Shown here piece by piece: positions 37,630-38,235 of a stretch of 64,000 bases of DNA. A program made the position numbers and the translations under genes. The DNA is from Escherichia phage vB_EQ1. The stretch lies in sequence record PQ516281; one strand, 5' to 3'. The notes below the pieces were generated by a model. That model made no database searches. It saw nothing but the letters and a program-made list of their open reading frames with translations, and was not told the DNA's origin. Each line of letters opens with the position of its first letter. Position 1 is the stretch's first letter.

Positions 37630-37923
37630 TTATTCACCTGTGATTTCGGTTACGATATCTTTGTTATCGAAATTAGGGTCACAATACAAAACATAATTGT
37701 ACTGCATGATACCGCCAGACTTAAGTTGTTCAACAACTTTATTAACCATATTAGGACGGTCTCGTTTAGTGATGTTCATGATATCAGAGAAGATTTGTTG
37801 TTCAACATCTTCTTGATTTGCAGTCATTGACCACTCACAGAGGTCTTTATCATAACCTGCCGTAACTGGAGCTGGTGCACATGATACTGCAAGTAAGATT
37901 GCTGCCAATGATAACTTTTTCAT
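37630..37923 (-). CDS. sp: Spackle periplasmic protein Sp (97 aa)
   Basis: Signal peptide MKKLSLAAILLAVSCAPAPVTAGYDKDLCEWSMTA...; same length and motifs as remembered T4 Sp. Confidence 0.85.
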   Translation of the reverse strand: MKKLSLAAILLAVSCAPAPVTAGYDKDLCEWSMTANQEDVEQQIFSDIMNITKRDRPNMVNKVVEQLKSGGIMQYNYVLYCDPNFDNKDIVTEITGE

Positions 37924-37986
37924 TTTAACTCCTTAGTTGATTTGATAGGACTACTATACTATAGTCCATCTATAATGTAAACAAGT

Positions 37987-38235
37987 TTATTCTTTTTCGC
38001 GAATAATAATTACTTGTTGAGGCTGCTGAGCAGATTTCTTTTCGGCAACGATAGACCAAATTAAAGTTCCAATCCAACCAACCATCGTCCAGTTAAAGAG
38101 TAAAGATACAAAGAAGATTGCTGTTGTGCTTTTTGTGCCACGAATAAGTGCGATTACCCAAGGCAACATGTAAATGATGATTGAACCAATACCTGCGATT
38201 AAAACTGCTATTGAACTAGCTACGAATAATTCCAT
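37987..38235 (-). CDS. Imm-type superinfection immunity membrane protein (82 aa)
   Basis: YMLPWVIALIRGTKSTTAIFFVSLLFNWTMVGWIGTLIWSI fits the Imm_superinfect motif (LP.IIA..R.H.N..AIF.LN...GWT.IGW..ALIWA); two TM helices. Confidence 0.55.
   Translation of the reverse strand: MELFVASSIAVLIAGIGSIIIYMLPWVIALIRGTKSTTAIFFVSLLFNWTMVGWIGTLIWSIVAEKKSAQQPQQVIIIREKE

Follow-up and report, generated by a model that had tools for sequence, protein, structure and literature searches.

An imm.1-imm module beside sp in the RB69-like phage vB_EQ1, with a SIS-domain gene at the T4 position of imm

Results

Orthologues of sp and imm lie in one gene run

A 64,000-nucleotide stretch of Escherichia phage vB_EQ1 (sequence record PQ516281; the whole stretch is referred to here as the window) carries orthologues of the T4 superinfection-exclusion genes sp and imm in the run 61.4 - imm.1 - imm - sp on the minus strand. 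This run is best explained as a layout derived within the genus Mosigvirus, and high confidence is placed in that explanation as a whole. An earlier sequence-only reading had placed sp and an Imm-family gene side by side at 37630-38235, and both open reading frames (ORFs) were found at exactly these coordinates on the minus strand. The genes of the run are as follows.

37630..37923, minus strand: sp (spackle), the T4 61.3 orthologue; a complete ORF for a 97-aa precursor with an N-terminal signal peptide
37987..38235, minus strand: imm (immunity to superinfection); a complete 82-aa ORF for a predicted small inner-membrane protein
38297..38665, minus strand: imm.1; a 122-aa predicted lipoprotein with the lipobox LTGC at residues 13-16 (Cys16) and DUF5481 (PF17578)
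38726..38938, minus strand: 61.4 homologue (DUF7279); Pfam DUF7279 at 5e-20, 57% identical to T4 gp61.4

On alignment, the 82-aa protein is a full-length T4 Imm orthologue, beyond mere membership of the family. It matched Pfam PF14373 (Imm_superinfect) at 1.8e-15 and 57 bits (gathering score 27.9), and this match spanned the profile from position 1 to position 42, its full length. A match to PHROG 1039 (immunity to superinfection) had a value of 1.8e-30. The comparison with T4 Imm that the sequence-only reading had proposed extended from end to end, with 54 of 83 positions identical (65%), one gap of a single residue and E = 3e-37; it included both termini and the C-terminal QVIIIREKE tail. 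Two hydrophobic segments were predicted, at about residues 3-31 and 40-62, and the same pattern was present in T4 Imm (Kyte-Doolittle windows of 19 residues, score at least 1.6 at residues 1-34 and 40-59 of the window protein). The motif from which the family had been recognised was essentially present (YMLPWVIALIRG...AIFF...NW...GW...LIWS), although the part quoted as LP.IIA reads LPWVIA in the sequence. No solved structure similar to Imm was found at E ≤ 1. The window gene thus resembles T4 imm in length (82 versus 83 aa), hydrophobic segments, C-terminal tail and the presence of imm.1 before it, but differs in position, since it adjoins sp whereas T4 imm lies between 43 and 42.1.

The possibility was considered that the 82-aa ORF encodes gp61.4, the competitor that the sequence-only reading had itself named, or an unrelated two-segment membrane peptide with a chance likeness to the motif. 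T4 does have 61.4 next to sp at the matching place, and small hydrophobic peptides are prone to spurious motif matches. However, neither point accounts for a full-length identity of 65% at the E value given above, or for an Imm_superinfect score twice the gathering threshold. There was no local alignment between the 82-aa protein and T4 gp61.4 at E ≤ 100, and the genuine 61.4 homologue has a gene of its own at 38726-38938. Assignment of the protein to 61.4 was rejected on these grounds, and the alternative as a whole has next to no chance of being correct.

T4 Imm gave a single tblastn match in the window, at 37990-38235, and a six-frame scan with a hidden Markov model (HMM) of seven Imm sequences detected only the 82-aa ORF (8e-39; next best 0.026). 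A second Imm-family ORF was therefore found in the window by neither tblastn nor the HMM scan. Each of the 1033 phage records that Imm matched likewise had just one match, which indicates that the Mosigvirus position of imm is not a duplication.

The assignment of sp, which had been made from its signal peptide and sequence, was confirmed. The product matched Pfam PF25676 (T4_Spackle) at 1.1e-42 and 145 bits (cut-off 27), with the profile covered from position 1 to position 96, its full length; it also matched PHROG 1586 (spackle periplasmic). It aligned with T4 Sp along its whole length of 97 residues at 66% identity without a gap, was hydrophobic at residues 4-24 of the N-terminus by hydropathy, and matched the solved Spackle structures in PDB entries 6x6o (1.4e-39) and 7cn6 (1.1e-33). 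The Spackle disulfide Cys29/Cys81 and the contacts with the gp5 lysozyme, Ser32-Ala35, Gln37 and Asn76, have been named (PMC7677548); all of these residues were unchanged in the window Sp when it was aligned with T4 Sp. By homology, Sp is a putative periplasmic inhibitor of the tail-spike gp5 lysozyme; the gp5 of this phage lies outside the window. Compared with T4 Spackle (gp61.3; PDB 6x6o, 6xc0, 7cn6), the window protein has equal length and the same signal peptide and 75-aa mature part, and 61.2 is the downstream neighbour of both genes; the 3' end of the window sp shares 8 nt with the start of the 61.2 ORF (GTG at 37637). The upstream neighbours differ, being imm in the window and 61.4 in T4.

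The gene that accompanies imm was missed by the sequence-only reading. That reading was right that imm stands at the sp locus, but it is a two-gene imm.1-imm module that sits beside sp. Imm.1 matched Pfam DUF5481 at 4.7e-9 and 37 bits (cut-off 27) and was 32% identical to T4 Imm.1 (E = 3e-19), and T4 imm.1 is directly upstream of imm. In both T4 and JS98 the order is dmd - 61.4 - sp, with 61.4 abutting sp directly, so the 61.4 homologue of the window marks the upstream border of the insertion.

A SIS-domain gene occupies the T4 position of imm

The T4 order is 43 - imm.1 - imm - 42.1 - 42, which bears out the statement that T4 imm lies between 42 and 43 and makes 42.1 the immediate downstream neighbour of imm. 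The statement that imm is absent from the corresponding slot of the window also held: the sole T4 Imm match and the sole HMM hit are the ORF beside sp. The slot contains the following features.

48795..48938, minus strand: 42.1 homologue; a 47-aa two-segment membrane peptide
48935..49570, minus strand: SIS-domain gene, RB69 ORF055c homologue; Pfam SIS at 5.7e-10, RB69 annotation arabinose-5-phosphate isomerase
49611..52322, minus strand: gene 43, DNA polymerase, by RB69 annotation; the anchor of the ancestral imm position

The SIS gene lies between 43 and 42.1, in the place of T4 imm.1-imm, and its stop codon overlaps the start of 42.1 in the sequence ATGA; in T4 it is the stop codon of imm that overlaps 42.1 in this way. 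It has been discussed as a candidate arabinose-pathway gene (PMC6024577). The sequence-only reading was correct that a sugar-cassette gene is in the slot, but the 47-aa peptide that it described as different is the homologue of T4 gp42.1: the two were 57% identical over 30 aa (E = 6e-14), or 52% identical over 46 aa by tblastn. The peptide was also 57-66% identical to those that Gaprivervirus, Winklervirus and Kanagawavirus carry in the corresponding place, and the RB69 record notes it as 'similar to T4 42-imm intercistronic region'. On this sequence similarity and its position, the 42.1 homologue is a gene that stayed at the ancestral location.

The gene-42 counterpart of the window (44470-45186, minus strand, 238 aa) shared only 25% identity with the dCMP hydroxymethylase of T4. 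A flavin-dependent 5-hydroxy-dCMP synthase activity has been reported for RB69 gp48 (PMC13326640); if so, the sugar cassette would serve arabinosylated 5-hydroxycytosine, not hydroxymethylcytosine.

The slot carries either imm or the SIS gene in 11 genera

The position of imm was compared across genera. The gene directly follows gene 43, apart from any intervening lipoprotein gene, in Tequatrovirus T4, Dhakavirus dhaeg, Moonvirus KM16, Muldoonvirus, Jiaodavirus PKO111 and Gaprivervirus PSD2001. T4, Moonvirus, Jiaodavirus and Muldoonvirus share the order 43 - lipoprotein - imm - (42.1). In Dhakavirus and Gaprivervirus imm adjoins 43 and the lipoprotein gene comes after imm; in Gaprivervirus PSD2001 a 42.1-like peptide follows (43 - imm - 42.1-like). 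At the sp locus, imm was found in neither JS98 (dmd - 61.4 - sp) nor SP18 (dmd - sp). Since imm follows gene 43 in six other genera and these two sp loci are without it, the Mosigvirus position is the derived one.

The SIS gene was present at the gene-43 end of the slot in Mosigvirus (the window and RB69), Winklervirus, Kanagawavirus, Bragavirus and Gualtarvirus. All five of these SIS-bearing genera had no imm in the slot, and imm was present there in the six genera without a SIS gene at that place; across the 11 genera sampled, the slot carried imm or the SIS gene and never both.

The SIS-bearing genera differed in the remainder of the locus. Winklervirus CBH8 has the order 43 - lipoprotein - SIS - 42.1-like - ORF53_52 homologue at the slot and 41 - sp - 61.1 - 61 at the sp locus. 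No imm was found in the whole 171-kb CBH8 genome (MF036691), where the best six-frame hit of the Imm HMM had E = 0.14, compared with 8e-39 in the window; Winklervirus CBH8 has lost imm. Kanagawavirus CIP9 has the CBH8 slot order, with an unannotated 42.1 that was detected at 66% identity. In Bragavirus SdyM_006 a SIS homologue is next to gene 43 and the slot has no imm, and in Gualtarvirus PSTRCR_127 a SIS homologue is next to gene 43 and an Imm-family gene (PF14373, 1e-13) is in the tk-rI region.

The sequence-only reading had proposed that insertion of the modification cassette displaced imm to the sp locus. The alternation of SIS gene and imm among the 11 genera fits that proposal, but the cassette as a whole is not what excludes imm. 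Dhakavirus has homologues of ORF53_52c, ORF051c and ORF045c (42%, 61% and 38% identical to those of the window), has no SIS gene in the slot and retains imm beside 43; the idea that the whole cassette forces imm out was rejected because of these three cassette-gene homologues. The exclusion pattern and the Dhakavirus counter-case together support displacement in a narrower form, tied to the SIS gene. In sum, the identification of sp and imm from sequence was correct, and the interpretation placed on it was supported with corrections.

CBH8, a Serratia phage, keeps sp, the imm-associated lipoprotein and the 42.1-like peptide, and is a natural sp-positive, imm-negative T4-type phage. In seven genera a lipoprotein gene of 137-175 aa adjoins imm, lies in its vicinity or adjoins the SIS gene present in its stead (sampled loci L005, 3852-4352; L006, 3022-3462; L007, 3028-3474; L008, 3017-3460; L011, 3892-4395; L013, 3543-3956; L014, 3439-3966). 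All of these proteins have a lipobox at about residues 12-17; a VG motif and a Cys motif at the C-terminus are common to several of them. Pfam detected DUF5481 in T4 and the window only among the genomes examined, and not in the lipoproteins of the other genera; with hhalign, only a 29-column signal/lipobox part of DUF5481 Imm.1 aligned with them.

The layout is shared with RB69 and fixed in the genus

The window is from an RB69-like Mosigvirus. Over 36900-39500 it had 98.2% DNA identity to RB69 and was 100% identical to Escherichia phage MRostami-2023e (OQ031495). In the RB69 reference NC_004928 (AY303349) the order at the locus is 61.2, sp, imm, imm.1, 61.4, dmd, with the genes already named (imm, imm.1 and sp fall under the locus tags RB69p035-p037), and the same names are used in many related records. 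Genes, order, strand and spacing are identical in the window and RB69. The two differ by one amino acid each in imm and sp and by two in imm.1; these are just strain-level substitutions, and one single-base indel lies outside the three genes, near 39477.

A 331-bp probe across the imm-sp junction was found whole in exactly 154 phage records, every one of them at least 95% identical, and outside those records it matched through its sp half or its imm half only. In 153 phage records the identity of Imm was 95% or higher, and the gene was intact across about 150 genomes. The placement of imm beside sp is a fixed, genus-wide and previously annotated Mosigvirus layout, and is ordinary rather than new. 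In full-text literature searches no paper that explicitly treats the position of RB69 imm was found, and prior knowledge consists of database annotation.

Early-promoter-like sites lie in the three gaps of the run

The 60-63-bp gaps 61.4/imm.1, imm.1/imm and imm/sp each contain one promoter-like site of the pattern GTTTAC-N18-TAYWRT. The window contains 12 occurrences of this pattern, where 0.39 would be expected; all are on the minus strand, which is the coding strand. The pattern agrees with the consensus TTTACW-N17-TAYWAT reported for T4-type early-promoter cassettes (PMC4122927). The three sites, all matches to the consensus, are as follows.

37953..37982, minus strand: T4-early-type promoter-like site before sp, GTTTACA-N17-TATAGT
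38264..38293, minus strand: T4-early-type promoter-like site in the 61-bp imm.1/imm gap, GTTTACG-N17-TATTAT
38694..38723, minus strand: T4-early-type promoter-like site before imm.1, at the junction with 61.4, GTTTACA-N17-TACTAT

The imm.1/imm gap is 61 bp long with such a site in the window, in contrast to 7 bp without one in T4. The -10 box before sp is inside an AT-rich hairpin, GGACTA...TAGTCC (-15 kcal/mol, z = -2.5), and this was the only hairpin seen in the gaps. Stem-loops of terminator type were detected neither ahead of the promoter sites of imm.1 and imm nor elsewhere in the gaps, and the region had one terminator-like site compared with 1.3 expected. Recombination between promoter-bearing intergenic cassettes is a documented form of module shuffling in T4-type phages (Arbiol 2010, PMC2839356; Comeau 2014, PMC4122927). 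Set beside these promoter-early/stem-loop (PeSL) cassettes and their T-even analogues, the window module is bounded and punctuated by short early-promoter intergenic sequences at or near TTTACW-N17-TAYWAT. The recombination junction of the imm.1-imm module could not be pinpointed by promoter comparison.

Near-copies of the promoter-plus-hairpin cassette were present on the minus strand at 16812-16841, 17324-17353 and 37953-37982, the third of these being the sp promoter. All three read GTTTAC...GGA[C/T]TAT..TATAGTAGTCCTATC, with the -10 box inside the hairpin, and they may be a T-even analogue of the PeSL mobile regulatory cassettes. Further GTTTAC-type promoter-like sites were found at 26552-26580 and 39472-39500 (minus strand) inside long inverted repeats that enclose the -10 box, CTCCTCTGGTT...AACCAGAGGAG and CTCCAGTAGTT...AACTACTGGAG.

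Neighbouring genes and differences from the RB69 reference

Within the 61-41 region, a run of host-interaction and counter-defence genes extends over 36292-39445 on the minus strand, between the 61.1 and ORF040c homologues. Besides the genes of the imm-sp locus it comprises 61.2 and dmd, listed here with the two bordering genes.

36292-36786, minus strand: 61.1 homologue, the left border of the run
36978-37637, minus strand: 61.2, the AdfA anti-DarT factor; Pfam 4.8e-119
38940-39131, minus strand: dmd, antitoxin against RnlA/LsoA
39128-39445, minus strand: ORF040c homologue, the right border of the run

More generally, the 61-41 interval is a hotspot of accessory genes. A search of 36000-40000 against Rfam at E ≤ 0.1 found no structured RNA.

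Three pairs of RB69 ORFs are fused into single ORFs in the window through single-base indels relative to the RB69 reference.

43571-44470: fused ORF046c and ORF047c, 299 aa
36292-36786: fused 61.1 and ORF032c
47068-48753: fused ORF052c and ORF053c, 561 aa

The fusion of ORF052c and ORF053c is in line with what Thomas et al. 2018 (PMC6024577) argued from resequencing. The remaining two fusions point either to additional frameshift errors in the RB69 reference or to genuine differences from it.

Discussion

A proposed mechanism for the layout and its products

Gene identities, positions, taxonomic distribution and the exclusion between SIS gene and imm at the slot were established directly. The roles invoked here for Imm and Sp are those of established T4 genetics. 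Host RNA polymerase would transcribe imm.1, imm and sp soon after infection, each from a separate T4-early-type promoter in one of the 60-63-bp gaps. Imm would then enter the inner membrane and block the DNA of later-arriving T-even-type phages from crossing it, and Sp would be exported, lose its signal peptide and bind the lysozyme domain of the incoming gp5 tail spike, so that the cell wall stays closed. These actions are proposed by homology with T4 (PMC7677548, PMC6832632). As for the history of the locus, the SIS gene of the DNA-arabinosylation cassette would have taken the place of imm and left 42.1 behind, and a T4-type imm.1-imm module would have been inserted between 61.4 and sp, probably through recombination between similar early-promoter intergenic sequences. 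Biochemical function, promoter activity and the relocation route are the parts of this account that we infer.

Several points weigh against this explanation. The literature searches found no experiment on the function of Imm or Sp in RB69-type phages, and function rests on 65-66% identity to T4. RB69 has been reported to be without lysis inhibition, and imm and sp play a part in this phenotype in T4 (PMC6832632), so that the T4 phenotypes linked to imm and sp need not all transfer. The individual T4-early-type promoters of the three genes are putative and are consensus matches only. The site before imm.1 was identical to the T4 imm.1 promoter at 33 of 50 positions and to the T4 sp promoter at 30 of 50, and was the best of the 12 window sites for both; these values do not discriminate between an origin from a T4 imm.1-type promoter and one from the resident sp promoter. 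The 11 sampled genera are not phylogenetically independent, as the cassette may have spread as a block, and in Kanagawavirus and Bragavirus the search for imm covered the 43-to-61 region, not the whole genome. Lastly, the affinities of the genes are mosaic, with Imm, Imm.1, 61.4 and gp41 nearer T4 and gp43, Sp and Dmd nearer Dhakavirus, which bears on the relocation route. The identities of the window proteins were as follows.

gp43: T4 62% (61.9%); Dhakavirus 84% (83.8%)
Sp: T4 66%; Dhakavirus (dhaeg or JS98) 74%
Dmd: T4 57%; Dhakavirus (dhaeg or JS98) 67%
Imm: T4 66% (65.9%); Dhakavirus 53% (52.7%); Gaprivervirus 56.6%
gp41 (39964-41406): T4 86.5%; JS98 69%
61.4: T4 57%; Dhakavirus (dhaeg or JS98) 42%

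Strong mosaicism was thus seen within 10 kb, from the T4-like gp41 (39964-41406) to the Dhakavirus-like gp43 (49611-52322).

Two possible routes to the present position

A move within the genome and a loss followed by recapture from a co-infecting phage are about equally likely. In the first case, the imm.1-imm module of the Mosigvirus ancestor was transposed about 10 kb from gene 43 to the gap between 61.4 and sp when the sugar cassette arrived. This would account for the single imm per genome, for the retention of the T4 order (imm.1 and then imm) with the strand and transcription direction of the old site, for the presence of 42.1 at that site still and for the SIS gene in the vacated position. 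The 65% identity of Imm to T4 also resembles that of its neighbours (Sp 66%, 61.2 65%). However, a resident module would be expected to resemble the relatives nearest in gp43, and it does not. The gene-43 region is like that of Dhakavirus and Kanagawavirus (gp43 84% and 79%, compared with 62% to T4); relatives of those types have a different lipoprotein next to imm and an Imm 53-57% identical to that of the window, but the window Imm and its DUF5481 Imm.1 are T4-type. Transposition is accordingly a serious candidate that falls somewhat short of an even chance.

In the second case, the SIS-led cassette replaced imm, and a T4-type imm.1-imm was later regained from a co-infecting Tequatrovirus-like phage at the early-promoter gap between 61.4 and sp. 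Winklervirus CBH8, with SIS in the slot, sp present and imm nowhere, would represent the intermediate. Imm is nearer to T4 than to Dhakavirus or Gaprivervirus, the opposite of gp43, Sp and Dmd, the DUF5481 Imm.1 is common to T4 alone among the genomes examined, and the adjacent gp41 and 61.4 are T4-affine as well, so that the whole segment may be T4-type in origin. Against this, a difference of 10 residues is weak evidence in proteins as short as these (about 80 aa), and an Imm.1 just 32% identical to that of T4 implies that the donor was not a close T4 relative or that the event is old. No donor-like sequence was found, none at E ≤ 1e-29; the nearest non-Mosigvirus full-length Imm among the matches listed was 63-66% identical. 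The single record in the 80-90% Imm identity band was considered as a possible donor lineage and rejected because it fails E ≤ 1e-29; its match is probably partial and short. Recapture is therefore held tentatively, as plausible but not quite probable.

Is the adjacency functional?

It may also be asked if selection brought imm.1, imm and sp together as a single co-regulated unit of superinfection exclusion, in which Imm.1 is a working partner of Imm. The co-occurrence of imm.1 and imm is consistent with such a unit, as are the action of all three products in the envelope, the fixation of the arrangement in 154 genomes, and the presence of a lipoprotein gene no more than two genes from imm in six of the six examined genera with imm next to gene 43. 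Yet each gene has its own promoter-like site, so that co-expression would be possible without adjacency, and T4 functions with imm and sp 6 kb apart. Winklervirus retains the lipoprotein and sp without imm, the DUF5481 Imm.1 aligned with the other lipoproteins by hhalign over no more than the signal/lipobox part, and the status of the 61-41 interval as an accessory-gene hotspot also speaks against selection for this arrangement. A functional unit is consequently considered unlikely.

A more far-reaching proposal is that Imm.1 is a third, hitherto overlooked superinfection-exclusion component of T-even phages, acting together with Imm, and that the imm.1-imm-sp envelope island formed after the arabinosylation cassette evicted imm, with DNA modification trading off with, or changing the need for, exclusion by Imm. 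The outright loss of imm seen in Winklervirus would imply, on the same reasoning, that acquisition of the cassette trades off against Imm-type exclusion or alters the need for it. This proposal is speculative and its chances are considered slim.

Significance

With regard to the derived layout 61.4 - imm.1 - imm - sp itself, the discovery value is small, since the genes and their placement are named in the RB69 reference and repeated in about 150 phage records. The sole mildly new element is the mutual exclusion of SIS gene and imm together with the three differing fates of imm in SIS-bearing lineages, where it adjoins sp (Mosigvirus), lies close to tk-rI (Gualtarvirus) or has been lost (Winklervirus CBH8). 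This comparative pattern is a small, testable example of competition among accessory modules for shared insertion points in T4-type genomes, and phages that lack imm and carry sp, such as Winklervirus CBH8, could help to separate the roles of the two exclusion proteins.

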